Position numbers and translations under genes: made by a program. Shown here in pieces: positions 7,457-62,564 of a stretch of DNA of 64,000 bases (position 1 is its first letter; every line of letters starts with the position of its first letter). Under the pieces are notes generated by a model. The model did no database searches. It had not been told where the DNA came from and saw only the letters and a program-made list of their open reading frames with translations. Where the stretch lies: NCBI GenBank assembly GCA_963765765.1, contig CAVXYC010000017.1, forward strand, positions 71,125 to 135,124, written 5' to 3'. Source of the stretch: an uncultured Chloroflexia bacterium (GTDB lineage: Bacteria > Chloroflexota > UBA6077 > JACCZL01).

Positions 7457-7620
7457 GTTTGTCCGCTATCGCACCCAAGTCACGCGCCCGAGGAACGAGA
7501 CACGTGCTGCATCTCGATATCGATGGCGAAACAACGAGTGATTGGAGAAAAAACATTCCCAAAACTCTGAGGGAAATGAAGACCAAGCCGGGGATTCAAC
7601 GGCTCGCGCAGTAGTCGCGG

Positions 7621-8516
7621 ATGATTGAGCAGACGGGGCTTAACATTGGGGCGCTTGCCCGCCGAAGCGGTGTGCCTACGGCGACCTTGCGTGCCTGGGA
7701 GCGGCGTTACGGACTTCCCGCACCCCGTCGCACGATGAGCGGCCGACGAGTGTATTCGAACCTCGACCTGACCGCTGTCCTGCGCATGCGTCAACTGGTG
7801 GCCGAGGGTGTAGCTCCCGCGCGAGCCGCAATTCTGCTGACAGCGTCGGCGCAACAGTCAGCCGTTCCTGCGTCGTCAGAGCGTTTGGCCCTGGGCTTCG
7901 CGGAACGGTTCGTCGACGCGTGCATTCGGTACGATGACGTCTCAGCCAACAGTATCCTCGACGAAACATTGGCCGTATATCCCGTCGAGGACGCCTGTTT
8001 AAAGGTCTTCATCCCGGCCCTGTGGCGAATCGGCGATCTCTGGCAAAACGGCGGGCTTCCGGTCGCAACTGAGCACCTCGGCAGCAACCTCATTCGCGAC
8101 CGAGTGGCGATGCTGATGCGGGTGACCAGCACATGGCCTGAGGCAGGCCTTATCGTCTTGACCTGCGCACCGGCGAGCAGCACGACATCGGCCTGCTGAT
8201 GCTGGCAGTTCTCTTGAAGCGGCGAGGGTGGCGAGTACTCATCCTGGGAGCCAATACACCGCTTGACGAAATCGATCGTGTTGTAGCCGTCCTCGAGCCT
8301 CACGCCATCATCATCTCTGTCACCCAAGAGGCCGTGGCCCGACGAACGTATGAACGTTGCCAGGTTCTCGTTGCTCAGCTTGAGCGCCATCGGACTATTC
8401 TGGCGTTGGGAGGTCGCGGTGTCGCATCACTCCCGCGTGAGCAGACGTCAGACAAGATCATCATTCTCCCCCAGGAACTGCTCGAGACAGTTGCGGTTCT
8501 TGAGAAATCATCTTGA
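7621..8516 (+). CDS. MerR-family regulator with cobalamin-binding domain (CarH/LitR-like), frameshift near 8175
   Basis: IGALARRSGV..TLRAWERRYGL MerR HTH; W-x9-EH (LWQNGGLPVATEH); EQHDIG B12-binding motif after frame correction. Confidence 0.85.
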
Positions 8517-38337: not shown

Positions 38338-38342
38338 TGCAG

Positions 38343-38426
38343 TAATGAGCGGAGAGTGATGAATCATGAGTGAGGTGAGGCTACCCAGTCCTTACTCATG
38401 ACTCATCACTCATGACTCATCACTCT
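38343..38426. repeat. Heptamer-based inverted/tandem repeat overlapping the next start codon
   Basis: gagtgatgaatcatgagtgagg...ccttactcatgactcatcactc, with atgactcatcactc repeated twice. Confidence 0.7.
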
Positions 38427-40441: not shown

Positions 40442-40747
40442 GCACACAGTAATTGGTACCGCTTGGCCCGGTCGCTTGACCCTGGCCGAGACGCGTGAAC
40501 AACTGCCCCCTCTTTAGCGTCGAAATGCGGCGGTGAGGAGGGGGCTTTTGATTTTGATTTGGATATACGTTTGATGGATGCGAGTCGGCCGCGGAGTTGC
40601 GCGAGCTCGGTGTGACGACCTCCGCTGGTTGCGGGTGTGGGGTGCAGTTCACTATGCTGATTCACTGAATAGAGATTCATTTCGGCCGTCGATCGTCACT
40701 GGGACGACGAGGCCGTTTTTATCGTTGAGCCCATGCGGGAGTCCCCA

Positions 40748-43445
40748 ATGACTGATCAAGCGGAACGTCAGGGTCCTGAGCGCGCCTATACGCCGTTCGA
40801 CCCCTCCGACGTTGAGGAGCGCACGTATAAGTCCTGGCTGGATGCCGGCTATTTCAAGCCGAGCTGGACGCCCGGCAAAGCGCCCTTCGTCATGACGATG
40901 CCGCCGCCAAACGTCACGGGCGAGCTCCACATCGGCCACGCGCTGACGATTGCAATCGAGGACGCTCTGGTCCGCTGGCATCGGATGATGGGCGAGCCAA
41001 CCTTGTGGGTGCCCGGGCGCGACCACGCCGGAATCGCCGGCCAGCTCGTGGTGGAGAGGCAGCTCGCTCAGGATTCCAATCTCTCGAGGCACGACCTTGG
41101 TCGAGAGAAGTTTCTGGACCAGGTCTGGGAATGGATGAACGATTACGGCCGTCGCATTCAGTTTCAGCTTTACCGGCTGGGAACCTCGGCTGACTGGGAC
41201 CGTGAGGGCTTCACGATGGATTCGGGCCCTTCTCGGGCGGTCCGCACGGCATTCGTTCAGCTCTTTGAGAAGGGGCTGATCTACCGCGGGCATCGCATCA
41301 CGAACTGGTGCCCGAGATGCGCGACCGCGCTTTCCGATCTCGAGGTGGTTCATTCGGAAGAGGTGCGGTATTCTTGCGTATGTCCGATATGCCCTCGTGG
41401 ACGAGCCCGGGAAACCGAGCGGGTCCATCACCGTGGCCACTACCCGACCCGAGACCATCCTGGCCGACACCGGCATAGCCGTCCACCCGGAGGACGAGCG
41501 CTATAAGGCGATGATCGGTCGTCGAGCCATCGTCCCTTATGTGGCACGGGAGATTCCGATCGTCGCGGATGACGTGGTGGATCCTACTTTCGGAACGGGC
41601 GCCGTAAAGGTGACCCCCGGCCATGATCCCACCGACTTCGATATCGGCCAGCGACATTCACTGCCGGTGATCATGGTGATGAATCTCGATGGCACGATGA
41701 ACGATGATGCCCTAGGGCTGGCCGGCATGCCGGTGGCTGCCGCGCGCGAGCGATTCCTTCAGATGCTGCAGGAGGAAGGTGCTCTGGAGCGAGTGGAACC
41801 ACATCGACATGCCGTCGGCCACTGCCAGCGCTGTAACACTGTGGTGGAGCCTATCGTCACGGACCAATGGTACGTGCGTATGGAGCCACTTGCCGAGCCG
41901 GCGCTTGAAGCCGTGCGCGACGGACGCATTCGCATCGTTCCCGAATATTTCACCAAGGAATACAACAATTGGATGGAGAACATCCGCGATTGGTGCATTA
42001 GTCGCCAGTTGTGGTGGGGACATCGGATTCCGGTCTGGTACTGCGAGGACTGTGGCGGTCAGACGGTGGCCGTGGTGGACCCGGACGCCTGTGCATCGTG
42101 CGGAAGTAAGAAGATCGAGCAGGATCCCGATGTCCTCGACACGTGGTTCTCATCCGGTCTCTGGCCATTCTCCACGCTCGGTTGGCCCGACAACACGGAG
42201 GACATGCAGCGATACTACCCGACGACGGTCATGGAAACGGGCCATGACATTCTCTTCTTCTGGGTTGCGCGGATGATCGTGATGGGCCTGGAGTGCACCG
42301 GCGACATCCCCTTCCGCGACGTCTTCCTCCATGGCATGGTCCGCGTGGACGGCGAGAAAATGAGCAAGGTTCGAGGGAATGTCCAGGACCCACTGGACAT
42401 CATCGGGCGGTATGGAACCGATGCGCTGCGTCTCGGTCTCGTCATGGGTACAACGCCGGGTAAAGACGTCTCCATATCCGAATCGAAGTTCGATTTTCAA
42501 CGCGACTTCGTCAACAAGATGTGGAATATCGGTCGCTTCGTCCTGGGAAACCTTCCGACGGAAGCGCGGGCGTCACTCCCTGACGGTGTAGCGAGCTCGT
42601 TGGCGGATCGATGGATCCGCAGCCGCGCCGCCGCGATCGTGACTGACGTGTCGCGCCTCCTTGGCGAGTTTCAGCTTGGGGAGGCATCACGCCTGGCGGA
42701 AGAGTTCCTCTGGGAGGACTTCGCGAGCTGGTATCTGGAGATCGCCAAGATTCAGCTCCGATCCGCCGAATCCGATGCGGAGAAGGTCGCCACGCTTTCT
42801 ACGCTGAGAGACGTGTTTACCGTGTGTCTCAAACTGCTCCATCCGTTTGCTCCGTTCATCACCGAGGAGCTCTGGCAGCAGCTGCGCGAAGGTCAGCAAG
42901 GGCTGGAGCCATCGATCATGATCAGCGCCTGGCCGACTCCCGGTGATCGAGATGCTGTCGCCGAGGCGGAGTTCCAACGGGTGGCAGATCTCATCCAAGG
43001 TATCCGTCGTCTGCGATCGGAGTATCGGGTGGACTGGTCGCGGCGAGCTCCGGTGACGATTGAAGCGTTGGATACGCCGCAGCTATTCAAAGATCAGAGT
43101 GATGCGATTGCTTCGCTCGCCCGGCTGGATCCGCTGGAAGTTGTGGAGCGCGTTCGAGAAGAGCCGTCCGATGCGCTCACGGTGGTGGCCGGCGGCGTTC
43201 GTGCCTTTGTCGCGGCATCGGGTCTTTTCGACGTCGCCGGTGAGCTCAAGAGGCTAACCGTCGGTATTCAGACCACCACGCAGGCTGTTCAGCGCAAGGA
43301 GGCATTGCTCGGACGTGAAGGGTTCGTAGCGAAGGCTCCGCCCGCGGTGGTGGAGCGAGAACGCCGCGATCTCGAGCAGCTTCGTTCGGAGCTCGCCCTC
43401 ATGCAAGAGCAGCTCAGCCGCCTCCAGGGGATGGCGGGTGGATAG
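40748..43445 (+). CDS. valS: Valine--tRNA ligase (frameshift near 41370)
   Basis: PPPNVTG.LHIGH, ATTRPET, DWCISRQLWWGH, KMSK and C-terminal coiled coil. Confidence 0.95.
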
Positions 43446-47074: not shown

Positions 47075-48080
47075 GCTCGGTGGTCTCCTCACCAAGAAGG
47101 CCGTTGGGTCTGAAAACGAGAATCAAGAATGAGAATCCCGAATACGACGGCCTGCGTCCAGCGCGCGTCGAAAACGAAGTCGCTTCTGGCCGCGATCAGG
47201 CCAATGATGAACCCGCCAAGCACCGCGCCAGTGATATTGCCTATTCCTCCGAGCACAGCCGCGGTGAAGGCCATGAGGCCGCCTCGAAACCCCTGAAAGA
47301 ACCAGGCGGTGTTGTTGTAGAGGCCAAAAATGAGTCCCGCGGCCCCAGCAAGCGCACCGCCAATGAGAAACGTGAGCGCGATGGTCTGGTTGATATCGAT
47401 GCCCATGAGCGCGGCGGCTTCACGATCCTGCGCCGTGGCGCGCATCGCCTTGCCTAATCGTGTTCGGGTGATGAAGAGATGCAGTGCATACGTGAGCGGC
47501 ACGCTGAGAGCAATGACGAAGAAGTCTTTGACCGTGAATGTGACGATGCGAGTCTATGCCCAGGATATCGCCCACAATGTCGATGTTCGGAATCAAGTTC
47601 GGGAAGTCCACGGCCGACGCGCCTTTCCAGAACAGCCCGACGTTCACCAGGATGAACGATACGCCAATAGCCGAGATCAGCGGCGCGAGGCGCGGCGCGT
47701 TGCGCAAGTCGTCGGTATGCGAGCCGCTCGATCGCAGCGTTCAATAGCGCGCATACAAGCATGCTTCCGACCAGTGCCAGGACGATAAGCAGCACAATCA
47801 ACGGGGGGTCGAGCTGGCTCGCTCGGCTAAGGCCCAGCATTGCTGGAATCGCCGTGATGATCGTGAGGGCGGTCATCGTGCCAATCATGAACACCTCGCC
47901 ATGGGCGAAGTTGATCAGCTCGATGATGCCGTAGACCAGCGTGTAGCCAAGAGCGATGAGTGCGACGATCGCGCCGTTGGCGGTGCCGATGAGCAGGATC
48001 TGCAGCGTGAGCTCAGGACCCTGCCAGGGAAAGACGAGCGCCGCCACCAATGCGGTCACGAGCAGCCACGTTGCGCTCAC
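47067..48080 (-). CDS. livH: LivH-type permease (several frameshifts)
   Basis: ALGYTLVYGIIELINFAHG, GKAMRATAQD and AAVLGGIGN across three ORFs. Confidence 0.88.
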
Positions 48081-48176
48081 GACGTCTTCATCCTTGTTTG
48101 ATTATCAACGAACACTGACGCGTGCGAAGATTGACTCTCGCACGCGCCAGCAATCGTACTGGTTTTATCGATGTGC

Positions 48177-49548
48177 TTACTGAGGCGCCTGGAGCGTCAC
48201 GGCATTCTCGTCGTCGAACTTGCCGTCATTGACCTGTCGGCCGCTCATCGTCGTGAGGCTGGTATCGCCATTGGTGTCGAAGCGACCACCGGTTACCTAG
48301 TACCCCGTCGTAGTCCTTCGTGGCAAAAACCGCGTCACGAATCTTTGCGCGATCCTTTACCCCGGCGCGTTTGATTGCATCCAGGACGACCTTCATGGAC
48401 TCGTAACCGTAGGCCGCGTATGCTTCGGGCTCGGAGTTGTACTTGGCCTTGTATGCCCTATACCAGTCTGCGCCCTTTCCGGTGAGCTTCGAAGGCGGGA
48501 CTCCGCCGAATGTGATGTAGGCGCCTTCAGCCGCGTCGCCCGCGTCGTCGAGAAACGCCTTCTCATAGATACCATCAGGCCCCATGAACTTGACGTTGTT
48601 GCCCAGTGTTGAGCGGATGTCCTTCAGGAGCTTGCCCGCCTGATTCTGGGTGATGCCACCGTAATAAATGAGGTCCGGGTTGGCACCGCGGATCTTCGTC
48701 GCAAGCGCGCGATAGTCCGAAGCTTGCGGATCGATGCCTTCCGGGCCACCCACGATGTTAATCCGACCTTGGGCGCGGTATTGTTGAATACCGCCGCGAG
48801 GCCGTTGCCGTAAAGCTCGGTGTCGTGAAGAATGTAGACACGCTGAGCGCCGAGCTGCTTTGGCCCAGTTTGCGCCAACGGACCCCTGCAGATCTCGGCG
48901 GGCACCACGCGCGAGTAGTTACGCTGGCCGTTGGGGTAGTAGACATCTGGCTCGTCCGGCTCCACGCCCTCAACCTTCTTGGTAAGCCCAGGATAGGTGT
49001 TGGCCGGGGAGATCATAAGCAGGTTCGACCGATTCAAGATCGGGATCGCGACCTTAGCCGCACCCGAGTTGAAGGTACCAACGTATGCCATTACGTCCGG
49101 GTCGTTCACTGCCTTGTTGGCGTTCTCAGCTTCCTTGCCAGCATCCCACTGGCCCCTTGCAGGCGTAGCATCATCCATGTCCTCGTAGTCCAGCGTTGCG
49201 CCATCTATGCGCATGTTGACCTCGTCAAGGGCCATTTTGATGCCGTTGACGATCGTGTCAGTCTGACCCTTGGAGCTTCCTGTCCTCGGAAGGCTCGAAA
49301 CGATCTTGATGCGACCCGTTAGTTGGCTGGCGCCGGCGGCAGGCGATGCGGCGGGTGACGCGGCCGGAGACGCGGCGGGTGACGCCGCGGGGCTTGCGGA
49401 TGGGGCCGATGGGCTGGCCGCTGCGGCAGGCTTCGCGGTCGCCGGCGCTGTTGTGGGCGTCGCGGGAGCCGGTGAGCAGGCGCTCAGCAGCACAGCCAGT
49501 GACGTGGTCACGAGCGTAACCGCTCCGAGACGCTTGGCGCTATCGCAT
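48177..49548 (-). CDS. Branched-chain amino acid ABC substrate-binding lipoprotein (several frameshifts)
   Basis: Lipobox LLSAC, SPAA linker, GTFNSGAA, ISPANT and YAAYGYE across ORFs. Confidence 0.85.
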
Positions 49549-49994
49549 AAATACTTCCTCCACAGTGGTCGAGCTCAGGAAATGGTGTACGATCTCGAAT
49601 CTTGCAACTGCTGCACCAAAAATTCACCGGGTCTTCTCGCATGTGATATACATGTACGAGATGAGACGCCAACGTCGACCGGACGTGCTCGGCAAACTCA
49701 CGCCACTGCGCGACGAGAGCTAGCGCTCAACCAAGGCCCAATCTACCACAGCCTCTGTACGTGCGCAAAGGTTATCTCCGCACAAGCCGGCTTGTTCATT
49801 CCCGGTCGCTTGCACGGAAGCCGATGCTGCTCCGAGACGTCGATTTGAGTGTCCCATCGCTATAATGGCGTTGGCCTATCCACGAGGCACATGCTCTCAC
49901 CGTGGAGCTTGATCTGCCGCCTCGCCCCCTGGCCTATTTCCTGCACTTACGTTGCGGTTCAGTAAAAGACCGCAAGGTCTGAGGTGATGGTCGA

Positions 49995-50850
49995 ATGACC
50001 GCGTTTCAATCCGAAGACCGGACGCGTATCAAAAGAATACGCGCCGAGAAGGCCATCCAGCTAGCGATGCAGAATCGCTGGTCGGAGGCCTCTGAAGTCA
50101 ATCGCCAGATCATTGAGCTTTTTCCGGACGATGTGGATAGTCACAATCGACTCGGAAAGGCATTGATGGAGCTTGGCCAGTATCCTGAGTCACGCAATGC
50201 ATATCGTGAGGCAGCCAAACTCGATCCATCAAATACAATCGCCGCCCGAAATCTTCAGCGGCTTGAGCAGCTCACCGATGGTGACAGCGAAGCAACCCCG
50301 GCGACACCGGTAGACCCACGGCTCTTCATTGAAGAAGCCGGGAAAACGGCGGTCACGGCCTTGAACGACCTCGCCAATCGCACGGTGCTTGTTCGACTCA
50401 CCGCCGGTGATCCGTTGTCCATTGACGTGGATGGCAACACCGTCAAAATGTCAGACCAGACGGGAGAAGTCGTGGGTCAGGTTGAGCCAAAGCTGGCTCA
50501 ACGGATCGTCCGGCTCCTTGAGATGGGAAACAAGCTATCGGCAGCCGTAACCGCCGCCGATGACCAGTCCGTGCGCGTGATCATTCGCGAGGTCTATCGG
50601 GACCCCTCGATGGGGAATCGTGCATCCTTCCCCATGGCAATTGCCCCCGATCAATTTCGTGCCTACGTCAAGGATTCGCTACTTCGTTACGACCTTGATG
50701 ACGACGAGGATATCGTGGACGAGGTCGATACCGAGACCGGAGCTGAGGTGGAGGCGGATGCTGAAGCCTCACCTGACACTGAAGTTTCACTTGACGACCC
50801 GTCGGTCGTTGCCGCCGAAGGGAAAGGACGACGATGACGACGAGGATTAA
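49995..50850 (+). CDS. Tetratricopeptide repeat protein with acidic C-terminus
   Basis: WSEASEVN...NRLGKALMELG.Y..A...Y..A..LDP.N.IA TPR pattern. Confidence 0.85.
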
Positions 50851-50894
50851 CACAGCGCCACATTAATCACCGCGATTTTCGGTGCAACGTAACG

Positions 50895-50944
50895 GGCGCG
50901 TGCGCGATGGAGCATCTGCATCCACGCCACGCGCTTTGTTTTGT
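50895..50944 (+). terminator. Terminator-like hairpin after the TPR gene
   Basis: gcgcgtg...cacgcgc stem followed by tttgttttg. Confidence 0.55.
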
Positions 50945-50974
50945 CTGGTAGCCGGGCGTGCTCGGAATAAGAAG

Positions 50975-51023
50975 TGGAGCGGAGATAGGGAATCGAACCC
51001 TCACGTCTAGCTTGGGATGCTAG
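50975..51023 (-). repeat. Duplicated 3' part of tRNA-Gly (att site)
   Basis: tggagcggagatagggaatcgaaccctcacgtctagcttgggatgctag nearly matches 61129-61177. Confidence 0.92.
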
Positions 51024-51109
51024 TCCCTATCTGTGATGTCTGGTGCGTAAATCGAGGAATGAGTCGGCCGTGTGAGGGACGGGCGGGAGAGGAGCCGGCA
51101 GAGTGACGA

Positions 51110-51760
51110 CGAGGGCACGCGGATCGGCTCTGATCTGAACGACAGCGGCGGCACGCCAATGTGGGCGTCGTCCGTTGCTCGACAGCTTCCTGATCGACGC
51201 GCTGCGGGCCTGGACGTCCCGCGTGAGGTGACCTACTCGACGACAAGCGTTGCCAGGCAGACCGCGTATGCCCTGCCGTGCGTCAGTCGTCGAGATCGTC
51301 AGGGTCGAGCACCCGGCGGGAGTGTATTCCGTCAGCCTCGCCCCGGCCATTCGGGCGAACTGAGGCCTGGAACTGAGCTCGCGCCTGCCGGTGCGATCGT
51401 CGTGCCGCCTGGCGGCCTGTGGTACGAGGCCTGGGCTTGGGGAGCTGGTGCTTACGTCCGCACCTGACGTATCGGGTCAGTCGATCGCTGTTCGGTACGT
51501 GGGTGCGTATACCGAGCCGTCAGCTGACGGCTCGGTGCTCGACGTGGCTTCTCGCGACGAGGACGCGATCGTGGCGCACGTGTGCGCGCACGCTATGGAG
51601 TGGATCGGCGCCGACGAGGCCAAGCGCATGCGATTCGAGCGTGAGCGGGGCGCATCACCTGCGGAGTCACGGCGACTTCTGGACGATCGGTACCGGGCTG
51701 CCAAATCCCGTCGTCTGGCGGGTGTGAGGTCTCGGAACAAGCGGATTGGCCGGGCATGGG
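51110..51760 (+). pseudogene. Degraded phage-like gene (possible head-tail adaptor)
   Basis: Across frames: TRIGSDLNDSGGTPMW...LIDALRAW...TAYALP...IVRVEHP...LVLTSAPDVSGQSIAVRY...; resemblance recognised by eye only. Confidence 0.45.
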
Positions 51761-51810
51761 GTCTTTGCCGGGTTGATCGCGCGTCGCAGACGGAGCATAG
51801 TAACCACAGC

Positions 51811-52818
51811 ATGGAGTATCAGAGCCGCCGCCACTTTCTGAAGGGCAGCCTGGCGCTGACCTGTCTCGGGCTTCTGGGCGGTTGCGGGGTCCTCCCGTTT
51901 CAAGGACGGGGGCCGACAAAAGTCCCGCGTGTGGGTGTGTTGTGGACTTCCGAGCCAGTGTCGCTCGAGGCGTTCCAACAGGGCCTGCGCGATCTGGGGT
52001 ACGTGGACGGGCAGAACATCGTCCTGGAGTATCGATACCAGGAGGGGCAGACGGAGCGCCTTCCCGCCCTCGTGGCTGAGCTGGTCGCCCTGCCCGTGGA
52101 CGTGCTCGTCACAACCGCGTCGCCGGCTTTGCGGGCCGCTCAGCAGGCCACCGCTGAGATCCCGATCGTCATGGCCGCCATCGGCGACGCGGTGGACTCG
52201 GGGTTCGTCCGCAGCCTGGATCAGCCAGGGGGCAACATGACTGGTCTTTCGTTCCTGGGCATCCCGATGGCGGTCAAGCAGCTCGAGCTGCTCAGAGATG
52301 CGGTGCCCGGCGTCTCACGGGTCGCAACGATTCGCGATGCGACCACCGCGCCACTCCTGGGCGAGACATTCCGCCAGATAGGGGAGGCGGCGCGGGCCCT
52401 GGGCATTGAGCTCGAGCCGCTCCTGGCGACCGCACCTGAGGGACTCGCGGGTGCGTTCGATTCCGCGCGCGAGGCTGGCGTCGGGGCGGTTCAGGTCCAC
52501 ACGTCCGCGTCGTTTTCCAACTCGGAGCATCGGAAGGCGCTGGTCGACCTGGCCGCGCAAGTCGGCCTGCCGACGATGTATCCGCAGCGCATTTTTCCCG
52601 AGGTCGGGGGCTTGCTGAGCTATGGCGCCAACTTGTCGGACCTCTACCGCCGCGCCGCGACCTACGTAGACAAGATTCTCAAGGGAGCCAGGCCGGTCGA
52701 CCTGCCGGTCGAGCAGCCCAGGACGTTTGATTTCGTGGTCAATCTCAAGACTGCCCAAGCCCTGGGGCTAACCATTCCCCAGTCAGTGCTCGCCCAGGCT
52801 ACCGAGCTTATCCAGTAG
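51811..52818 (+). CDS. ABC_sub_bind (COG2984-type) substrate-binding Tat lipoprotein, paralog 1 (intact)
   Basis: SRRHFLK Tat motif, LLGGC lipobox, [37 protein letters not shown]-terminus. Confidence 0.9.
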   Translation: MEYQSRRHFLKGSLALTCLGLLGGCGVLPFQGRGPTKVPRVGVLWTSEPVSLEAFQQGLRDLGYVDGQNIVLEYRYQEGQTERLPALVAELVALPVDVLVTTASPALRAAQQATAEIPIVMAAIGDAVDSGFVRSLDQPGGNMTGLSFLGIPMAVKQLELLRDAVPGVSRVATIRDATTAPLLGETFRQIGEAARALGIELEPLLATAPEGLAGAFDSAREAGVGAVQVHTSASFSNSEHRKALVDLAAQVGLPTMYPQRIFPEVGGLLSYGANLSDLYRRAATYVDKILKGARPVDLPVEQPRTFDFVVNLKTAQALGLTIPQSVLAQATELIQ

Positions 52819-52872
52819 CGAGCGTGTTCTCGTGATCAGGCTCCAGGACTCGGCTCAGCCCATGATTAAGCC

Positions 52873-52897
52873 CGGCCGATAATGGGGTTATCGGAAC
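52873..52897. other. dif-like palindromic site 1
   Basis: GGCCGATAA-TGGGG-TTATCGGAAC. Confidence 0.5.
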
Positions 52898-53060
52898 GAA
52901 CCGTGATGTCTCACGGTGCTCAGCAGCTCGTCGTATATATCCATCGGCTTGGCGATCACCGATGCTGGCCCGGTAATCGGAGTTCTCTGAACGAATGATG
53001 CCGAATGGCTCAGTCCCCGGCGGCCGTACCAGGTGCTTGGGTCCTATCCGCGAGCAGCGC

Positions 53061-54065
53061 CTACTGGATGAGCTCGGTAGCCTGGGCCAGGACCGACTGT
53101 GGCAGTGTGCGCCCCAGCGCCTGAGCGGTCTTGAGATTGATCGTAAAGTCGTACTTCACGGGTCGCTCGATGGGCAGGTCGCCTGGATTGGCGCCTTTGA
53201 GGATCTTGTCCACAAAGGTCGCCGCGCGCCGGAAGTTGTCCGTGATACTGGCTGCATAGATCATCAGCCCCCCGGCGTTAATGAATTGGCTGCTCGAGTA
53301 CATCGTGGGGAGCCGGTGTTGCGCCGCGAGCTCCACGATCCGCGGGGCCACGACAACAAACGCGACGTTCGCCGTGACAATCACGCCGTCGGCCCCGGCG
53401 GTGATTGCATCGGCCACAACAGTGTCGATATCGTCCGGGCTATGGAGCTGCAGGGGCACAAGCTGGACGCTCAAACTGCGCGCGGCAGTCTCCAGCTCAC
53501 TGGAGATACCCACGGCATTCTGATTCCACAGGACGGCTACACGGGACATGCCCGGAAGGCCTCGAGTAGCTCCAGACGCTCCCCCTGCTCCTCCCCGGCG
53601 GACAAAGTCAAGCCTGTGATGTTACCGCCCGGCCGAGCCAGGCTCGCCACCACACCCTCCGCCACCGGATCCCCGCCCGTGGCAGCAAAGACAGTCGGAA
53701 TCGTCGTTGTACGCTTGCTGGGCTGCGCGGATCGCCACGGGCTTTCCGCGTACGATCACGTCGAGCTCGAGCCGGACCAGGTCGGCCGCCAGCTCCGGAA
53801 GGCGCTCCTCCCTGCCATCGGCGTAGCGCTGCTCGATGGCCAACATGCTCGCCATCGATGTACCCGAGCTCACGCAGGCCCTGCGGAACGCCGCGAATTC
53901 CCGGTCGCGCTGCCGAGTGCCAGGAAGCCAATCTGGGGAATCCGCGGCGGGTTGCGCTCATGTGCGGCCGGAAGCGGACACCGCAGCCGGCCAGATGCCG
54001 CTCTGGCCATGGCCAGCCCGCCGCGCAGGAAATCGCGCCGCTGTAGAGGTTGGTAACCAGGTCAC
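53061..54065 (-). CDS. ABC_sub_bind Tat lipoprotein, paralog 2 (multiple frameshifts)
   Basis: QRRDFLRGG N-terminus by manual translation; FVDKILKGANPGDLPIERP...QATELIQ C-terminus. Confidence 0.8.
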
Positions 54066-55169
54066 TGGATGACCTCCGTCGCCTGGGCCAGGACGGTTGA
54101 CGGAATCGTCAAGCCCAAGGCCTGGGCCGTCTTGAGATTGATCGCAAAGTCAAACATGACTTGGCTGCTCCACGGGCAGATCAGCCGGATTTACGCCGCG
54201 GAGAATCTTGTCTACGTAGATCGTCGAGCGCCGGAATAGGTCGGCTCGATTCGGTCCATATCCCATCAGCGCACCGTGGGCGGTGGCGTCGGCTATCTGC
54301 CACATGGAGGGCAAGCCAAACTGGTTCGCCAGCTCGATGATCCGCGCCTGAGAGCTCCCAGTGCCAAATAATGGCCCACTCAGGACGTACAGCGCACCCG
54401 CCCGCTCCTGGACGGCGGATTCCATGACAGCATCAAGGTCACCGAGGCCGCTCACAGCCAGGAAATGCAGCTCCAGACCCAGGTTGGCGGCCGCCGTCTC
54501 ATAGGGCTGGCGGCCATCCAGGATCCCGATAGTGGCATCAAACAGGAGACTGACGCGTCGGAGTCCCGGCACGGTCTCCTGGATGAGCTGAAGCGGCTTG
54601 CCCGCAAGGAGGGTGAGTACTGAGACCGGTCACATTGGTGCCGGGGGCGGGCGAGGGTCTCCGCGAGCCCGCTGGTCACCAGATCGCCCTGGCCGATGCT
54701 CACGATGGGAATCGTGGTGGTGATGGAGCGGACCGCACGGGCAACCGTAGCGGCCGGAACCACGATCACCTCGGGCTGGAAGCGCTCGATGATGGCCGTA
54801 AACTCGTGGACCTGCTCGTCGCCACTGGCGTACGCCTGTTCGATGACCAGGTTCTGTCCCTCCGCGTAGCCGCGATCGCGCATGGCTTCGCGGAATGACA
54901 TCCATGAATACCGAGGTTGCCGGGTCCGAGGGCACCGGATTCGAAAGATAGGCAAGCCGCCGCTGCTGCATGGGCCGCGACGACGAGAGTCGCTCGAAGC
55001 CACAAGCTGAGAGCAGACTTAACCCAGTGACGGCCAGGCTTCCGCGCAGAAATCTGCGGCGAGCAAGGTGCCTCACGGGATCTTCTCCGTTGCCTGCGCG
55101 ATGACCACCCACCACTGGGGTCGGGAGTGCCAGTGGTGGCGCCAGCAAGATCCGCTCAGGACGCTTCAC
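54062..55169 (-). CDS. ABC_sub_bind Tat lipoprotein, paralog 3 (frameshifts)
   Basis: RRRFLRG...LLSAC; YVDKILRGVNPADLPVEQP; ends QATEVIQ. Confidence 0.8.
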
Positions 55170-56139
55170 TGAATCACTTCCGTAGCCTGAGCGAGCACGC
55201 TGGGTGGGACGGTGATACCCAGGGATTGTGCGGTCGTGAGGTTCACCAGGAAGTCAAACTGCGTTGGCTGCTCGATGGGCATCTCCGCGGGGTTGCTGCC
55301 CTTCAGGATGCGGTCCACGTACGACGCCGCGCGACGATGAAGCTCAGCGCGGTTGGCGCCGTAGGCCACGAGGCCGCCGCGAGCCACCGCCTCGGTCTGG
55401 AACCATGCTGTTGGCAGCCGATGACGAATCGCCAGCTCAGCGATCCGGTCCTGGTTCGCAGCAAATATGGCGCCGCCTACGATGTAGAGTGCCTGCGCAT
55501 GCTCACCTAGAGCGGTCTCCATGGCGGCGGGGAGATCCTCGGCCGTCGCGACGCCGACAAAGTGAATATCGAGGCCCAGATTCCGTGCGGCGGTCTGATA
55601 CGGATCACGTTCTTGACCCGGTGTGACTGTCGAACACCACGGCAACGCGCGTCAGATTCGAAACGACTCTGCTGGAGCAGCTCGAGCTGGCGGCCGATGA
55701 GATTCGGGGTGCTCAGCCCGGTTACATTGCCGCCCGGCCGAGCGAGGCTCGCCGCAAGTCCGCTGGTTACGAGATCCCCGGCGCCGCCACAGACGATAGG
55801 AATCGACGTGGTGGCCGCGCGGACGATCCGCGCATCAACGACCGAGGGGACGAAGATCGCTTCTACCTGGAGCCGCACCACTTCTGCCGACGCTTCGGCA
55901 AGACGCTGCGCGCCATCAGCGTAGCGCTCCTCGATGATCAGGTTGTGACCTTCCATATTTCCCAGGTCATTCAAGCCCTGCCGAAACGCCACGGTGAGCG
56001 CGTCGGTAGTGGGATTGCGGAGCGTTCCCGAGAGTCGGGCAATACGGTGTGTCGGAACTGATTGAGTCACCGGGAACGAGCAGCCCGCGGCGCCAGCAAG
56101 TCCGACGCCGAGAAGTCCCAGGAGCCGCCGACGATTCAC
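55166..56139 (-). CDS. ABC_sub_bind Tat lipoprotein, paralog 4 (frameshift)
   Basis: MNRRRLL...AAGC; [11 protein letters not shown]; [19 protein letters not shown]. Confidence 0.82.
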
Positions 56140-57126
56140 TGAATGAGCTCGGTCGCTTGAGCCGCGACGCTGGGTGGAATTGTGACTCCCAGCGCCTGGG
56201 CGGTCTTGAGATTGATGATCAGATCGTAGAGAGACGGCTGCTCAATGGGTAGATCGCCTGGCCGGGCACCTTTGAGGATCTTGTCCACGGAGGTGGCCGC
56301 GCGGCGGAAGAGATCGGCGCGATTGGCGCCATAGCCCAGCAGTCCGCCGCGTCGAACTGGCTCCGCACGCGTCCATCCAGACGGCAATCGGTGCTGCAGG
56401 GCAAGATCCGGGATTTGCCCCTCGGCGGCTTGCTGGATGAACGGCCCGCCTGACAGGACAATGCCATCCGCGCCGACGAGCATCGGGGAAGAGAATGCGC
56501 GTTCCAGATCGTCGGGCGTGCCCACGCCGACGATCTGAATCTCAAGGCCCAGGCTGCGTGCGGCGGCCTCGTATTGAGCGTGAAGATCGCCGATGAGCGC
56601 CGTGTCCACGAGCGCCGTGACCCGACTGAGGTTGGGTATCGCCTCCTGGAGGAGTTGCAGGAGCTTGCCGTGGAGTGATGGTGTGCTCATCCCCGTGACG
56701 TTGCTGTTCGGCCGGCCGAGGTTGTCCACAAGCCCCTTCTCACGCAGGTCCTCCTGGCCCACGCTGACGATCGGAATCGTTGGAGTGGCGGCATGCACGG
56801 CGCGAGCAACGGTGGCCGACGGCACCACGATCACTTCGGGCAGCAGGCGCGTGATCTCAGTGGCGAACTCCGCCACCTGGCTCTCGCCATTGGCGTATCG
56901 CTCCTCGAGCACGAGGTCACGACCGATCGTATAGCCACGGTCGGTGAGCGCCTGGCGGAAGACGCCCACCGAGCTTGCAGCTCCAGCGGCGTCGCCGCCG
57001 GAGAAGATACGCAACGCGGCGAACGGGAGGGGCCGGAGCGAAAGGCGAGGCGCAGCCCGAGAGGAGCGCCATGCCAGCCAGGGTCAGGCTCCTCTTCAGG
57101 AGCGCTCGACGGCGTTCGAGGTACAT
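56136..57126 (-). CDS. ABC_sub_bind Tat lipoprotein, paralog 5 (one frameshift)
   Basis: RRRALLK...LLSGC; VDKILKGARPGDLPIEQP...QATELIQ. Confidence 0.85.
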
Positions 57127-57215
57127 TCTCCCGAAAGCCCTACGCTTTCCGTCCTACGATCACCACCGGTTCCTGAGAGGTGGGTGGGTATTTTGAGAGT
57201 ATGTCGTGGTCACAT

Positions 57216-57242
57216 GGGCCGATAATGTGGGGCTATCGGAAT
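57216..57242. other. dif-like palindromic site 2
   Basis: GGGCCGATAA-TGTGGGG-CTATCGGAAT. Confidence 0.45.
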
Positions 57243-57304
57243 GAAGGCTAAAGTGAACCTGCTTCCAATCCGTCGGCACTAAAGCGCAAGCCGTAGCAGC
57301 TGCG

Positions 57305-58324
57305 CTATCGGATGATCTCGGTCGCCTGGGCCAGGACCGAAGGGGGGATTGTCAGGCCGAGGGCCTGCGCCGTTCCGAGGTTGATCACGAGCTCGAATGT
57401 CGTCGGGTAGCTCGACTGGCATCTGGGCGGGGTCGGCGCCCTTGAGGATCCGGTCGACGTAGCCGGCCGAGCGGCGGTATAGCGCAAGCCGATCCACGCC
57501 ATAGGCGAGCAGCCCGCCGGCCGCCGCCATGGGGCGGTTGGCCGAGCTCATCGGCAGCCGGTGTCGCCGGGCCAGCTCGCTCACCCGGGGCGCGCTGCTG
57601 CTCGGCACGGGGTTATCGAGCAGGTAGAGCCCGTCCACCCGTTCCGCCGCGGCGCGCTCGAACGCCGCCCCGAGCGCGTCGGCGTCGCGCGCCTCCAGCG
57701 AGCGCAGCTCCAGCCCGAGGGCGCTGGCCACCGCCCTCGACCACCTGGAATTCGTCGGCCCGGTCGGGCATGCCAGGATTCCAGAGCACGCCGACGCGCG
57801 CGAGGCCCGGGACGGCCGCCTTGAAGAGCTCCAGCCGCTTCTGGATCAGCTCCCCCGAGCTGCTGGTCAGACCCAGTGACATTGCCGCCGGGGCGGGCCA
57901 GGCTGGCGACGAAGCCGTCCTGGAACGGGTCTGGCGCTCATGGCCATCACGATCGGGATGGTGTCGGTGGCGTCTTTCAGGACCCGGGTTGCGGTCGGTC
58001 CCATCCGCGACAAGGACGTCGACCGGGAGGCGGACCAGCTCGGCAGCGAGCTCGGGCAGCCGGTCGATCCGCCCCTCGGAGTCGCGCCACTCGACCGCGA
58101 TATTCCGCCCCTCGGCGTAGCCGTGGTCCGCCAGGCCCTGACGGAAGGCCGTCGGCCCGCTCCTGCCCGCCGCCGCTCGCCCAGATATCCGACGCGAGGG
58201 AGCTGGTCGACTGACGCGGCGGACCGATCGGTAGGGCCGTGCAACCCGATAGGAGCCCCAGACCCGCCAGGATCATGCCATCCCGCAGGAATGCGCGACG
58301 CTGTAGAGGGCGGAACGAGGTCAC
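57305..58324 (-). CDS. ABC_sub_bind Tat lipoprotein, paralog 6 (multiple frameshifts)
   Basis: QRRAFLR...LLSGC; [12 protein letters not shown]; [11 protein letters not shown]; ends QATEIIR. Confidence 0.8.
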
Positions 58325-59336
58325 TGGATCAGCTCGGTCGCCTCGGCAAGGACCGACTGAGGAATCGTCAGACCCAGCGCCTGTGCGGTCTTGAGATTGA
58401 TCACCAGGTCGAATTTCTCCGGCCGCTCCACCGGTAGCTCCGCTGGATTGGCGCCCTTCAGGATCTTGTCCACATAGGTGGCGGCGCGCCGCTCCTGGGC
58501 GGCACGATTTGCCCCGTAGGCGATCAGTCCGCCGGCTGCCACATATCGCCGATCGGCCGACATCATTGGCAACCGGTGCGTGAGCGCCAGCGCGCCGACA
58601 CGCGCCACATTGCTCGTCAGCACGATATTGTCCAGCAGGGTCAGCGCATCCACCCGCTCACGCACCGCTCGCTCGAACGCGCCCTCGAGGGCGGCGGGCT
58701 CACGCACCTCCAGCGGCACCAGCTGTCAGCCCAAGGGGGCCGGCCGCGGCCTCCGCTATCTGCAACTCGCCGGCCTGGTCGGAGAGCAGGGTCAGGGTTC
58801 CAGATAACGCCTACGCGTGACACGGACGGGAGTGCCTGCCTCAGGATTTCCAGCCGCTTCCCGATCAGCTCGCGGGAGATGCTGGTCTGCCCGGTGACGT
58901 TGCCTCCTGGCCGTGCAAGACTGGCCACAAAGCCGTCCGCCACCGGGTCGCCCGTCCGTGCCATCACAATCGGGATGGTGCTGGTGGCACGCATTGCGGC
59001 CTGGATAGGAAGGGCCCCGGAGGCCACGATCACGTCGACGGGCATGCTTACGAGCTCGGCGGCCAGCTCAGGGAGGCGATCGACCTGCCCATCGGCGGGT
59101 CGCCACTCCACGGTGACCGTGCTGCCCTCAACGTACCCCAGCTCTGCCAGGCCCTCCCGAAAGGCGTCGGCCCATTCCTGTGCGCCGGTCCACAGGTAGC
59201 CGATACGCGGTGTCCGAACCGCCGGCTGAGACCGTGGCGATATCAGCCCGCAGCCGGCCAGCAGACCGAGGCCGGCCACGGACAGGCCACCCCTCAGGAA
59301 GCGGCGACGGGGGCAGGATGGCCCGAGTGGCGTCAT
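58321..59336 (-). CDS. ABC_sub_bind Tat lipoprotein, paralog 7 (frameshifts near 58730-58790)
   Basis: RRRFLRGG...LLAGC; [11 protein letters not shown]; YVDKILKGANPAELPVERP. Confidence 0.85.
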
Positions 59337-59438
59337 GATGGGGCTAGTGTACGCCCGCGGGACTGACGGCGCTATGGCGCGCTCCGTGCCCGCGCGGTTA
59401 CCGGAGCGCAGGCAATTCGACGATAGGTGATGTCTCGA

Positions 59439-59590
59439 GTGCTGGACGTGGCTACGCGCGACGAAGACGGGGCCGGGGTGCATCCCCTGTAGAGCTTGGC
59501 GGCTTTTGGGCCAGCGGTACAGCGCGGCGAAAGAGCGTCGTCTGGCGGGTGTGAGGTCGCGGCGACTCGTGTCGCGGGGGTTGAGCTAGC
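59439..59590 (+). repeat. Second, internally deleted copy of the 3' end of the 51110-51760 phage-like gene
   Basis: gtgctggacgtggctacgcgcgacgaagac...cgtcgtctggcgggtgtgaggtc aligns with 51535-51735. Confidence 0.8.
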
Positions 59591-59633
59591 GGCCGCGTAG
59601 GGATTAGCGGAACGAGTTTGCCTTACTTCTGGT

Positions 59634-60651
59634 TTACTCAATGAGCTCGGTTGCTTGCAGGAGGAGGTCCTGCGGGATCTTCAGCCCGAGGGCCTGCGCT
59701 GTCCCGACGTTAATCACGAAGTCGACGTCCGTCGGCCGCTCCATCGGCAGATCGCCGGGGCGGGCACCTCGCAGGATTTTGTCCACGTACGGTGCTGCAC
59801 TCCGGTAGATCTCGGCTCGACCGAAGCCATAGGCCAGCAAGCCTCCCGCCCGAGCGAACTCCGGATATTCCGCGACCGACGGCAGCCGATACTGGAGCGC
59901 TAACTCGGCGACGCGGTCCCACGCAGTGTCGAACTGGGTGCTGGAGAGAATCTTGAGGGCATCAGCGCCGGCTGTGGACATGGCCGCGAACGCATCGTCG
60001 AGGCCGCTGATGTTCGGCATGGCGACGACGTGAAGGTGTACCCCGAGGCCGGGCGCGGCCTCCTGGAGCGCCCGCACGCGGCGGGCGCTCGCCTCTGAGC
60101 TGCCTATGCGGAGCACGGCTACACGGGAGGCGTGCGGGACCGCTTCCTTCAAGAGTTGCAGCTGCTTGCCTTCCAGTTGCCACCCGCTTATGCCGGCCGT
60201 CCCGGTGATGTTCCCGCCGGGCCGCGCGATGTTGTCGACGAGCCCGCTCTCGATTGCCTCGCTGCTGACCAGGATCGCCACGAGCGGGACGGTGGCGGTC
60301 GCCTGCTTGGCGGCGATGCTGGCCGTCGACGTCCCCGCTACAATCAGCTCGACCTTCCGCTCGACGAGCTCGGTCGCGTTGGCCCGTTGCCGTTGGGGGT
60401 CTCCCTCGGCCCAGCGGGACTCCACGGCGAGGTTGCGGCCCTCGACCCAGCCCAGCTCCCGCAGCCCATCCCAGAACGCGTCCCAGCGCCCGCCGGGCGT
60501 GTCGCCGAGGACCCCGATCAGGCGCACCCGCTCGGAGGTTGGGGCCTGGGGAGGGAGCAGCCCGCAGCCGGCCAGCAGACCGAGGCCGGCCACGGACAGG
60601 CCACCCCTCAGGAAGCGGCGACGGGTGCGGGACGGACCCGGTTGGCGTCAT
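59634..60651 (-). CDS. ABC_sub_bind Tat lipoprotein, paralog 8 (one frameshift in the signal region)
   Basis: RRRFLRGG...LLAGC; NIARPGGNITG; YVDKILRGARPGDLPMERP. Confidence 0.88.
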
Positions 60652-60742
60652 GATGGCGCTAGTGTACGCCCACGAGACCAAGGGCGTCATGGAACGCTCC
60701 GCCGCCGCATGGCTACCAAGACGCAGGCAATTCGGCGTTAGT

Positions 60743-60810
60743 TACTCGACTGCTAAATCCCGTCGTGTGGCGGGTGTACGGTCACGGGGACTAATGCCGC
60801 GTGGCTTGAG
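60743..60810 (+). repeat. Third copy of the phage-like gene 3' end
   Basis: gctaaatcccgtcgtgtggcgggtgtacggtc (AKSRRVAGVRSR) versus AKSRRLAGVRSR at about 51700. Confidence 0.75.
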
Positions 60811-60919
60811 CCGGACGGCGAGGGAGGTCGGTATGTCGGTTCCGGAGCCTGATCCAGGGCGGGGCTACGTGTCCGCGCCACGCCGGTCAAAATCCGGAGT
60901 GGCAACCCGACTGCACGGG

Positions 60920-61023
60920 CGAGCCGACGCTGACGTCGATACGGACGCGGCGGCCGAGACGGAGGGCTCACTAGACGATCGCCGCCGTCGTCGCGGCTGA
61001 GGGAAAAACCGACGACGAGGACG
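60920..61023 (+). pseudogene. Diverged copy of the 3' end of the TPR gene
   Basis: ETEGSLDD-AVVAAEGKTDDED versus DTEVSLDDPSVVAAEGK-DDDDED at 50775-50850. Confidence 0.75.
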
Positions 61024-61060
61024 GTTTCAAGCGTCGAGGCTGATTACTGCTTCTGAAACC

Positions 61061-61101
61061 AAAGCGCGCGGTTCGGGAACCCGAGGCGCGCGCTTCTTTT
61101 T
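61061..61101. terminator. Bidirectional terminator-like hairpin downstream of tRNA-Gly
   Basis: aaagcgcgcg...cgcgcgctt followed by cttttt. Confidence 0.65.
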
Positions 61102-61128
61102 GCTCTGATGTGAAATGAGGCTAGGACG

Positions 61129-61202
61129 TGGAGCGGGAGAAGGGAATCGAACCCTCACGTCTAGCTTGGGAAGCTAGCAGGCTACCACTACATCACTCCC
61201 GC
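61129..61202 (-). tRNA. tRNA-Gly(CCC)
   Basis: GCGGGAGTGATGTAGTGGTAGC...CTAGC-TTCCCAA-GCTAG...GGTTCGATTCCC...CCCGCTCCA. Confidence 0.95.
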
Positions 61203-61356
61203 GTGGCAGAGATCATTATATGGGATAGCAGGTCTGTGACCCGACTCGATTCGGGGCGACATTTTTGCTCTTGTCGAGCCCGATCGATAGACTGGCAAGT
61301 GCTGCGCCATCGAGTCGGCTTCTACGCCAACTCACTTAGATCGCTGGAGAACTACT

Positions 61357-62564
61357 GTGTCTCGCCTCACGCGATGCTTTCAGTTAAGCATCGTATCGGT
61401 CCTGTTCATACTCTCGGGCTGCGATGCGGTGCGACTGCCCGGCGCGGCCGCTCCTACGCCAACCCTCGTGCCCACCGCCGTTGTCCCGACGGCTACGCCC
61501 GCCCCTACGCTTGCGCCAGCAACCAGTGTCCCGACCATTGTTCCTCGGACGGGCGCTCCCGGACTCGAAGCGGTCGTAGACGTGTACAAGCGAGTGTCTC
61601 CGGGCGTGGTCCTGGTAACCAGTAGCGTGGTGCGCCCGGACTTTTTTCAACAGGCAACGCCGCCGCAGCAGGGAACTGGATCTGGGTTCATTCTTGATAC
61701 GCAGGGACACATCGTGACGAATAATCACGTTGTTGAAGACGCTAATCGGCTGGAGGTGGCATTGCCGGACAATTCCGTCGTGCCCGCTCGGCTCATTGGC
61801 CGTGATCCATGGTTCGACCTTGCCGTTATCCAGGTCGACGTTTCGGCGGAGCGTCTGCATCAGCTCACACTTGCGGATTCTGACGCGGTGGAGATCGGCG
61901 AGCTTGCAATAGCAATCGGCAACCCGTTTGGTCTCGAGCGTACCGTCACGAGCGGCATCGTGAGCGCCCGTCGCGCCACCGTTGACTCACCGGGTGGCTC
62001 AGGCGTATTGGTCGATGCGATTCAGACTGACGCGGCGATCAACCCCGGTAACTCAGGCGGTCCGCTGCTCAATGCTCGTGGCGAGGTCACTGGGGTGAAC
62101 ACGTTGGCTCGACTCGGGCCAACCGGGGGCAGGCTGGAATTAACTTCGCCATTCCCATCAACGCGGTAAAGCGCATCGCTCCGGAGCTCATTGCCAGCGG
62201 GACTTACAAGCATCCCTTCCTCGGTGTGGGCGCCGTGGCAATCACCGAGGCAATTGCCGACGAGTTCAAGCTTCCAGTGCGAGAGGGGCTCATTGTTCAG
62301 TCCGTCACGCCTAGCAGTGGCGCCGCCACTGCTGGCATTCGCCCGTCGTCCCAGCCACAACAAGTGCGGAGTCGGGAAGTCGGAATCGGTGGTGACATCA
62401 TCGTGTCAATCGACGGCCAGCCGATGCGACGCTCGCCTGATCTCCTGGTATATCTGGAGCGAAACCGCCGTCCCGGCGACATGGTCACCGTCACGGTCAG
62501 CCGTGAGGGACAGACCCGGGATCTGACTGTCCGCGTCGGTGAACGGCCACTCCCGCAGCGCTAA
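61357..62564 (+). CDS. HtrA/DegP-like serine protease with PDZ domain (frameshift near 62130)
   Basis: Lipobox LSGC, GSGFI, TNNHV, DLAV, QTDAAINPGNSGGPL; PDZ GDIIVSIDG in a second frame. Confidence 0.92.

Follow-up and report, generated by a model that had tools for sequence, protein, structure and literature searches.

The DNA analyzed here is a 64,000-nt stretch, referred to as the window, of one contig (C17) from an uncultured soil Chloroflexota, whose metagenome-assembled genome (MAG; G000) comprises 33 contigs and 6.49 Mb with 91.8% completeness and 6.85% contamination. Our subject is a block of 10.1 kb that is bounded by a tRNA-Gly(CCC) gene on one side and by an imperfect repeat of its 3' 49 nt on the other and carries eight genes of the PF04392 (ABC_sub_bind) family of substrate-binding proteins (SBPs). 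An earlier interpretation made without database searches (the sequence-only reading) had described a tRNA-Gly island with eight paralogous lipoproteins exported via the twin-arginine translocation (Tat) pathway, and had proposed that they form a diversifying, mobile repertoire of surface ligand-binding proteins.

PF04392 was found above its cut-off (25.9 bits) in 11 of the 15 open reading frame (ORF) pieces submitted from the block, which together cover all eight copies, while the four pieces without a Pfam match were N-terminal or out-of-frame pieces. Searches by tblastn with the three longest copies as queries outlined eight genes, one on the forward and seven on the reverse strand, as the sequence-only reading had stated, but only the first of these is a single open frame. 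This copy 1 (51811-52818, +) encodes 335 amino acids with the N-terminal motifs SRRHFLK...LGGC, matched Pfam with 139 bits, required no frame corrections and is 91% identical to an intact metagenome protein (P0001). The reverse strand encodes copy 2 (53061-54061; QRRDFLR, with LAGC in another frame), copy 3 (54062-55169; ARRRFLR...LSAC), copy 4 (55166-56139; NRRRLLG...AAGC), copy 5 (56136-57126; RRRALLK...LSGC, signal peptide and mature part in different frames), copy 6 (57306-58324; QRRAFLR...LSGC), copy 7 (58321-59336; PRRRFLR...LAGC) and copy 8 (59634-60651; TRRRFLR...LAGC, mature part open). Copies 2 to 4 were delineated by Pfam, tblastn, a motif scan and a frameshift-aware alignment, copy 5 by Pfam, motif scan and alignment, copy 6 by motif scan and alignment, and copies 7 and 8, which belong to the young clades described below, by these two and a tree.

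A regular-expression scan of the N-termini detected an RR motif and a lipobox Cys in all eight copies, in copies 2, 5 and 8 only when read across a frame break, and thus bore out the earlier description. Pairwise identity among the copies ranges from 35 to 53% and the central regions are clearly divergent, again as described. The conserved C-terminus noted in the sequence-only reading is likewise present in all eight, but copy 8 has NV instead of NL, copies 3 and 6 contain a frame break inside it, and it is general to PF04392 rather than particular to these proteins, being found in the transporter-linked 3LFT protein as well. The possibility that the copies represent a collapsed or duplicated assembly artefact was rejected on the basis of their 35-53% identity and of flanks that are both syntenic with the congeneric genome G001 on one contig.

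The predicted structure of copy 1 (AlphaFold2 pLDDT 87.6, pTM 0.81) was matched by Foldseek to 3LFT at the top (E=1.8e-26, TM-scores 0.78/0.87), followed by 3LKV and 6HNI, with TM-scores of 0.74-0.89 overall, and a phmmer search of the PDB also returned 3LFT (7.5e-30). As modelled, copy 1 is a two-lobed type I binding protein that is closest to the L-Trp-bound 3LFT structure. The host encodes TatC (PF00902, 193.8 bits) as well as the lipoprotein-processing proteins Lgt (PF01790, 172 bits) and LspA (PF01252, 135 bits). Tat-exported lipoprotein SBPs are known from haloarchaea and actinobacteria. The motifs suggest that the proteins are exported in folded form and lipid-anchored on the cell surface, and the characterization of the products as surface-type ligand-binding proteins agrees with these sequence features. 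In LivK of the window (48229-49574) and in the canonical PF04392 SBP of the related genome G005 (L109:5771-6985) the lipobox is followed by a long Ala/Pro/Ser-rich linker (ASPAASPAASPAASPAA...), and the expanded PF04392 family is without such a linker.

When 44 ORF pieces of the non-SBP DNA in the block were compared with Pfam, no permease, ATPase or kinase and, with E-values up to 1 considered, no integrase, transposase, recombinase or other mobility gene was detected, none of the pieces reaching a cut-off; the reported lack of permease, ATPase, sensor kinase and integrase in the segment was thereby confirmed. A genome-wide search for a cognate permease gave the same picture, as none of the 67 PF04392 matches in G000 lies beside any of the 13 matches to the family-type permease BPD_transp_2. 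These 13 matches represent five systems, two in the window and one each on contigs C11, C4 and C15, and a BPD_transp_2 transporter devoid of an SBP that would be available to the orphans was not among them, since all five include their own Peripla_BP_5/6 receptor gene. The classical operon of permease, ATPase and PF04392 SBP is present in the related genomes G005 and G007, and its SBP (signal RRRF...LAAC) shares only about 25% identity with the expanded family. By tblastn and HMMER, the permease of G005 had no match in the 91.8% complete genome G000, and that of G007 had one weak match (E=6e-4), to the permease on C11. Permease orthologues with 66-100% identity were found in six of 41 genomes (G002, G003, G005, G006, G007 and G008) and not found in G000, G001, G004, G009, G023, G033 and G035, incomplete MAGs with 7-45 PF04392 matches each; among the nine genomes with at least six PF04392 matches, only G003 has the permease. 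The eight genes are orphans in this assembly. They share the Pfam family, the modelled fold, the C-terminal block LKGxxPxDxPV...N...A..LG..IP and, like the canonical SBP of the relatives, the predicted lipoprotein nature with the PF04392/COG2984 receptors of Trp/Tyr-type ATP-binding cassette (ABC) importers (3LFT with L-Trp, 3LKV, and CD0873 = 6HNI/6HNJ). They differ from these by the low identity to the canonical SBP, by the absence of a permease or ATPase gene alongside and by a copy number of 42 in this genome as compared to one to three.

The right boundary of the block is the intact tRNA-Gly(CCC) gene (61129-61202, -; ARAGORN and Rfam RF00005, 59.4 bits), while the left boundary is a displaced, decaying copy of its 3' 49 nt from the anticodon arm to the acceptor end (50975-51023, -), which was not called as a tRNA by either ARAGORN or Rfam. 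A repeat finder reported a direct repeat of 56 nt with 88% identity (50968-51023 and 61122-61177). The 49-bp repeat that had been proposed to bound the segment thus exists, with 45 of 50 aligned columns identical in the tRNA part, but it is imperfect and continues into a decayed copy of the 3' end of a neighbouring gene. This neighbour is the TPR-repeat gene of the conserved left flank (49995-50837, +; Pfam TPR families), which is convergent with tRNA-Gly in relatives and has an 80% identical orthologue adjoining that tRNA in G001. A decayed second copy of its 3' end adjoins the intact tRNA (approximately 60840-61000, +), in which EGSLDD and VVAAEGK are still legible (alignment A1); in a local alignment it scored z=8.3 against the native TPR end of G000 and z=5.5 against that of G001, and none of 500 triplet shuffles equalled either score. 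Both ends of the block therefore carry a segment of approximately 300 nt consisting of TPR 3' end, spacer and tRNA 3' part, the two copies being 54% identical over the TPR stretch and 90% identical over that of the tRNA. GC content is 0.64-0.70 within the block and 0.57-0.64 outside, with sharp steps of about 6 points upward exactly at the borders between 51 and 61 kb. An Rfam search over 50800-61400 with E-values up to 1 detected only the tRNA and no riboswitch or leader upstream of the genes. The right flank is conserved as well and begins with a gene for an HtrA-type protease (61291-62564, +), in which Trypsin_2 and PDZ_2 are in different frames due to one frame break.

The TPR gene has orthologues in 40 of 41 related genomes, and the TPR/tRNA-Gly locus was compared in the 16 relatives' loci that were fetched, 11 of which have no tRNA-Gly in the stretch fetched. 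In G001, a member of the same genus, the gene order is LivK, TPR, tRNA-Gly(CCC), HtrA and aldolase; TPR and tRNA are separated by 107 nt that include no SBP gene, and this empty site in the congener marks the block as lineage-specific. The TPR gene adjoins tRNA-Gly in four of the 16 loci (G001, G018, G033 and G012), which represent different genera and families of the order, and PF04392 was not detected at any of the 16, so that the comparison across relatives revealed an empty site and no fixed array. In G037 the two genes are 2.7 kb apart; this gap contains an epimerase gene and unannotated ORFs and showed no sign of being an insertion hot spot. We also looked for a relocated array in G001 without finding one, as the best match to the block copies was 65.5% identical (copy 5), the remainder reached 40-57%, and the SBP contigs of G001 are short (2.9-9 kb).

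The block is, judging from these comparisons, probably a lineage-specific insertion on the 3' side of tRNA-Gly(CCC). Recombination at the segment of TPR 3' end and tRNA 3' part that is duplicated at both ends would have brought in or rearranged it, and this end duplication is what might be expected to remain after a single crossover with a circle carrying the segment, or after arrival of an element together with flanking DNA from an earlier host. As in tRNA-associated genomic islands of the tyrosine-integrase type, the block is located on the 3' side of a tRNA whose last 49 nt, starting at the anticodon arm, recur as a direct repeat, deviates in GC content and corresponds to an empty site in a relative. 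In contrast to such islands it contains no integrase or mobility gene, and its duplication extends approximately 270 nt past the tRNA into the 3' end of the neighbouring gene, so that homologous (Campbell-type) recombination or carry-over of flanking DNA fits better than a clean att site. Regarding mobility, the sequence-only reading was thus partly supported, by the empty site of the congener, the tRNA 3' repeat, the GC jump and the integrases and transposases beside sister copies described below, but not by an integrase in the block itself.

The same observations would result if G001 had lost the array through recombination of one repeat with the other. According to this alternative the array is ancestral and not mobile, and the congener lost it through the two TPR-3'/tRNA-3' repeats, whose length of approximately 300 nt in direct orientation suits a deletion of the intervening DNA that leaves a clean 'empty' site; the missing integrase, the age of the repeats (54% identity in the TPR part) and the deep branching of the eight copies without a recent local burst are in line with it. 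It is, however, the less likely history because of the TPR-tRNA adjacency in four genera, which points to adjacency as the older state, and the repeats themselves require an insertion or duplication event. The GC rise of about 6 points exactly at the borders and the lack of PF04392 at the locus in the 16 relatives also speak for insertion, and we assign an ancestral array roughly one chance in four. A tRNA association as a general feature of the family was rejected, given that only one of approximately 20 clusters in the genome (the block itself) adjoins a tRNA and one other is located 3.5 kb from tRNA-Thr.

Frame breaks were mapped with a frameshift-aware comparison of the DNA against a profile derived from alignment A2, which places breaks to within a few nt and in which a skip of two may equal a 1-nt deletion. 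Copies 2 to 8 required 4, 4, 2, 1, 7 (up to 8 by another count), 2 and 0 frame corrections, respectively, and no in-frame stop was met; one additional break separates the start codon of copy 8 from its RR motif, which brings the number of broken copies to seven of eight. Genome-wide, 47 loci with the C-terminal block were aligned, and removal of five scoring below 400 left 42 full-length copies, 10 of them unbroken and 32 broken, with 105 frame breaks (66 skip-1 and 39 skip-2) and two in-frame stops. All of the 105 breaks fit skips of 1-2 nt, 66 of them as one extra base. Closer examination of copy 6 revealed that, when read through eight breaks, it is identical to an intact 335-amino-acid metagenome protein (P0241) at 285 of 335 positions (85%), with 69-95% identity in each of the nine segments. 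Breaks are found beyond the block as well: six of the 48 Pfam-annotated window genes outside it, namely those for a glyoxalase, a CarH-like regulator, valS, LivH, LivK and HtrA, are split between frames (2345-2900, 7615-8513, 40673-43442 for valS, 47092-48101, 48229-49574 for LivK and 61291-62564 for HtrA). Relative to their G001 orthologues, frame changes were observed in four of 23 genes (one in valS, two each in LivH and LivK, one in HtrA) and none between 22.6 and 40.7 kb of the window, and the G001 orthologues of these four genes are single ORFs. Split ordinary genes, valS included, indicate indel errors in the MAG.

We read most of the frame breaks, with good confidence, as assembly errors, since stops are nearly absent, motifs are retained and the essential valS is broken too. 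The alternative is a gene graveyard, in which most copies are real pseudogenes of a birth-and-death family and copy 1 alone is still working. Such a history would account for the excess of broken copies, seven of eight in the block and 32 of 42 genome-wide versus six of 48 other window genes, for a raised ratio of nonsynonymous to synonymous substitution (dN/dS; 0.44-0.64) with lineage-specific changes that favour no codon position, intact copies included, and for the location of most indels away from long homopolymers when members of the copy 7 and copy 8 clades are aligned; unique copies with no more than 75% nt identity to any other copy are broken too, and for these a mis-mapping of reads is unlikely. 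In bacterial pseudogenes, roughly one stop is expected per few indels. The 105 breaks versus two in-frame stops are set against decay, as are the restriction of all breaks to 1-2-nt skips with 66 single extra bases, the survival of family motifs upon read-through, exemplified by copy 6 with its consistent similarity to an intact homologue in every segment, the broken valS, LivH, LivK and HtrA genes and the nature of the assembly, a 33-contig MAG with 6.85% contamination. We consider the graveyard improbable as an account of the family as a whole, and continue with assembly error as the explanation of most breaks.

The eight genes are part of a much larger family. The 67 PF04392 matches in G000 are distributed over 12 contigs and correspond to the 42 full-length copies in approximately 20 clusters. 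In a tree of the family, the copies of the block are scattered, with copy 2 grouping with C1_277018, copy 3 with C1_281807 and copy 4 with C1_278027, while copy 5 pairs with a G001 gene and copies 1 and 6 with metagenome proteins; these scattered positions show that the array was not made by local tandem duplication. Copies 7 and 8 are each part of a young clade, together with seven further copies (83-92.5% nt identity) and eight further copies (84-91%), respectively, whose members are spread over eight contigs and whose similarity stops approximately 60 nt past the stop codon and 100-150 nt before the start. Median pairwise dN/dS in the two clades is 0.44 and 0.64, and lineage-specific changes are even over codon positions. 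The SBPs of G001 are 40-65% identical to any G000 copy, compared to mostly 70-92% for the orthologues of the flanks, which indicates that the repertoires turn over fast. The earlier description of the repertoire as diversifying is partly supported by the dN/dS values and by the turnover between congeners, but a raised dN/dS is compatible with positive selection as well as with relaxed constraint.

The family may have grown by scattered duplication of gene-sized segments, partly on integrase-bearing elements, with fast turnover. Two sister loci resemble integrated elements, one with tRNA-Thr, integrase, SBP and small terminase genes (C20:548061-552938, L131) and the other with an integrase, a Phd antitoxin, DUF4917 and a pair of copy-8-like and copy-7-like genes (C30:93979-97543, L130), and a DDE transposase adjoins a sister copy at 182 kb of C1. 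The closest relatives of copies 2, 4 and 3 (window 53061-56139) are found in a six-copy array on the same contig (C1:274284-281807, L121). Their order there is cyclically permuted relative to that in the block, a hint that arrays may have exchanged genes by unequal crossing-over or through circular intermediates. Three contigs begin or end inside or within approximately 2 kb of copy-7-like or copy-8-like genes (C1:1935-3053, C7:272-1317 and C6:37937-39029); assembly thus seems to be interrupted by the young repeats, and the genome may contain more copies than were counted.

Taken together, the block is probably an insertion with eight long-diverged members of a 42-copy family of orphan PF04392 receptors that would be anchored on the cell surface and act via shared, distantly encoded partners. 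Several observations weigh against this interpretation. The Tat and lipoprotein signals were identified by motif matching only, neither an integrase nor another recombinase is in the block, and the tRNA adjacency is confined to one of approximately 20 clusters. Frame breaks are about 25 times denser in the PF04392 family (approximately 2.5 per gene) than in other genes, a bias that assembly error alone does not explain. Some copies may be real pseudogenes, in line with the unique broken copies and the raised dN/dS of 0.44-0.64; alternatively, the bias might stem from hypervariable loci at which the consensus mixes several strains. Finally, with a genome that is 91.8% complete, the permease could be encoded in the missing part.

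Each copy may capture a different small ligand, most likely an aromatic or amino-acid-like one, because the known ligands of the family are Trp, Tyr and Phe and because other clusters have catabolic neighbours. According to Table 1 of PMC10443332, solved PF04392 structures bind L-Trp, L-Tyr or L-Phe, and the neighbours of other PF04392 clusters in the genome include LigB dioxygenases, Amidohydro_2 proteins, luciferase-like monooxygenases, glyoxalase-fold proteins and an IclR regulator. The ligand or a signal would then be handed to partners encoded elsewhere and common to many paralogs, by analogy with what has been proposed for orphan receptors of the Bug/TctC type. Sensor kinases could serve as this partner, as could one of the Liv-type BPD_transp_2 permeases or a permease encoded in the 8% of the genome that the assembly lacks.

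The Bug/TctC receptors provide a close parallel. B. pertussis is reported to have 76 TctC homologues and Rhodoplanes 434 (PMC11452294), and for the orphans among them shared, far-encoded partners have been proposed, with signalling roles also discussed. As in Bordetella, Rhodoplanes and Rhodopseudomonas, a large paralog family of extracytoplasmic binding proteins is present in G000 with most copies lacking a nearby membrane component. The likeness is one of pattern and not of membership, however, with the family here being PF04392 and not PF03401 and its class ABC and not TTT. Other differences are that the usual permease type of the family was not found in G000, and that the proteins are predicted lipid-anchored Tat substrates of a Chloroflexota, often encoded in same-strand tandem arrays.

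Among the non-transport roles that had been suggested in the sequence-only reading, no evidence was found for phage exclusion or sequestration, while sensing received a hint. A divergent PF04392 gene on C1 (128393-133254, L119) is located directly upstream of, and on the same strand as, the gene for a dCache-HAMP-GAF-HisKA kinase (129.9-132.4 kb) and those for two response regulators, and the TM2-HAMP part of this kinase is 58% identical to that of the kinase of an array in another bacterium (L037). The SBPs could thus be co-receptors that dock on dCache-HAMP-GAF histidine kinases or feed systems with sigma-54 regulators, with the arrays widening the detection range of a few pathways. Stimulation of signal receptors by SBPs is established (PMC10443332 and PMC9602780), no transporter was found for the family, and signalling genes lie beside four of 17 foreign loci, HAMP/GAF proteins with regulators at L037 and L047 and sigma-54 regulators at L029 and L034. 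No kinase or regulator is in or beside the block, however, the remaining 13 of the 17 foreign loci have no such neighbour, and a kinase was found at only one of approximately 20 clusters in the genome, its paralogs on C16 and C32 being without a PF04392 neighbour; with kinases at only two of the 17 foreign arrays as well, a purely sensory role appears doubtful. Capture of ligands for shared partners elsewhere, whether transporters or kinases, accordingly stays the interpretation that we prefer.

Similar arrays are common in other soil bacteria. Relatives of copy 1 in the protein collection number at least 7994 at E-values up to 1e-10. When one genome was scanned for each species, 77 loci with 40-51% identity emerged, and the MAGs concerned carry labels such as Binatia, Rokubacteria/Methylomirabilota, Delta-, Beta- and Alphaproteobacteria, Pyrinomonadaceae and Udaeobacter. 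Searches with hidden Markov models built from the collected sequences detected at least four and up to 11-18 same-strand ORF pieces matching the family at 28 of the 77 loci, counts that refer to pieces rather than genes and are inflated by overlapping frames. Within the flanks covered, many of these loci being short contigs, an ABC ATPase was present at seven and a BPD_transp_2 permease at three of the 77. The neighbourhood was surveyed with Pfam for 118 of 179 neighbour ORFs, originating from 17 of 25 picked loci. Sigma-54 response regulators are encoded directly upstream of the arrays L029 and L034, while HAMP/GAF proteins and response regulators follow downstream of L037 (betaproteobacterial MAG) and L047 (proteobacterial MAG), and transposases or an integrase were observed near L040, L068 and L081. 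Other neighbours include orphan receptor genes (TctC, SBP_bac_1/8 and NMT1) and assorted enzymes.

With arrays in the Chloroflexota studied here and in MAGs labelled Binatia, Rokubacteria/Methylomirabilota, Delta-/Betaproteobacteria, Acidobacteria and Verrucomicrobia, it is conceivable, albeit speculative, that transporter-less PF04392 lipoprotein arrays form a cross-phylum system independent of the ABC permease of their family. They would then be fast-evolving, horizontally spread ligand catchers for sensing or scavenging soil aromatics, and would supply a small set of common partners in the membrane, for which dCache-HAMP-GAF kinases or sigma-54 pathways are plausible candidates. No description of PF04392 orphan-receptor arrays was found in the portions of the literature on PF04392/COG2984/ABC_sub_bind and on orphan SBP expansions that were covered. 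The expansion of orphan receptors as a pattern (TctC/Bug) and the PF04392 family are both known, while their combination and its spread across soil phyla are new. If functional, the arrays constitute a large unassigned share of the surface proteins of uncultured bacteria that are abundant in soil, and they raise the question of the docking partner of ABC-type receptors in a genome without a permease of their type. On a practical note, frame breaks in MAGs with long contigs can mimic pseudogene arrays. The frame breaks, the family of 42 copies in approximately 20 clusters and the commonness of such arrays in soil bacteria had been missed in the sequence-only reading.

Two minor features remain to be described. 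The DNA between the left boundary and copy 1 (51024-51810) contains no recognisable gene, none of its ORF pieces reaching a Pfam cut-off, and includes one of three same-orientation copies of a block-specific ORF remnant (approximately 51530-51735, 59440-59562 and 60723-60787), which encodes a peptide like ...RYxAAKxRRLAGVRSR without a Pfam match. Besides the query itself, tblastn matched 59440-59562, and repeat family D9 added 60723-60787. The remnants are located upstream of copies 1, 7 and 8, with an orientation relative to copy 1 that is opposite to that relative to copies 7 and 8, and were rejected as a repeated mobile element since their tblastn matches in the genome are confined to the block. 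Farther to the left, a segment following sucD (approximately 38342-38426) matches dozens of places on many G001 contigs with a spacing of 21 nt and is probably a dispersed tandem 21-nt repeat of the genus.

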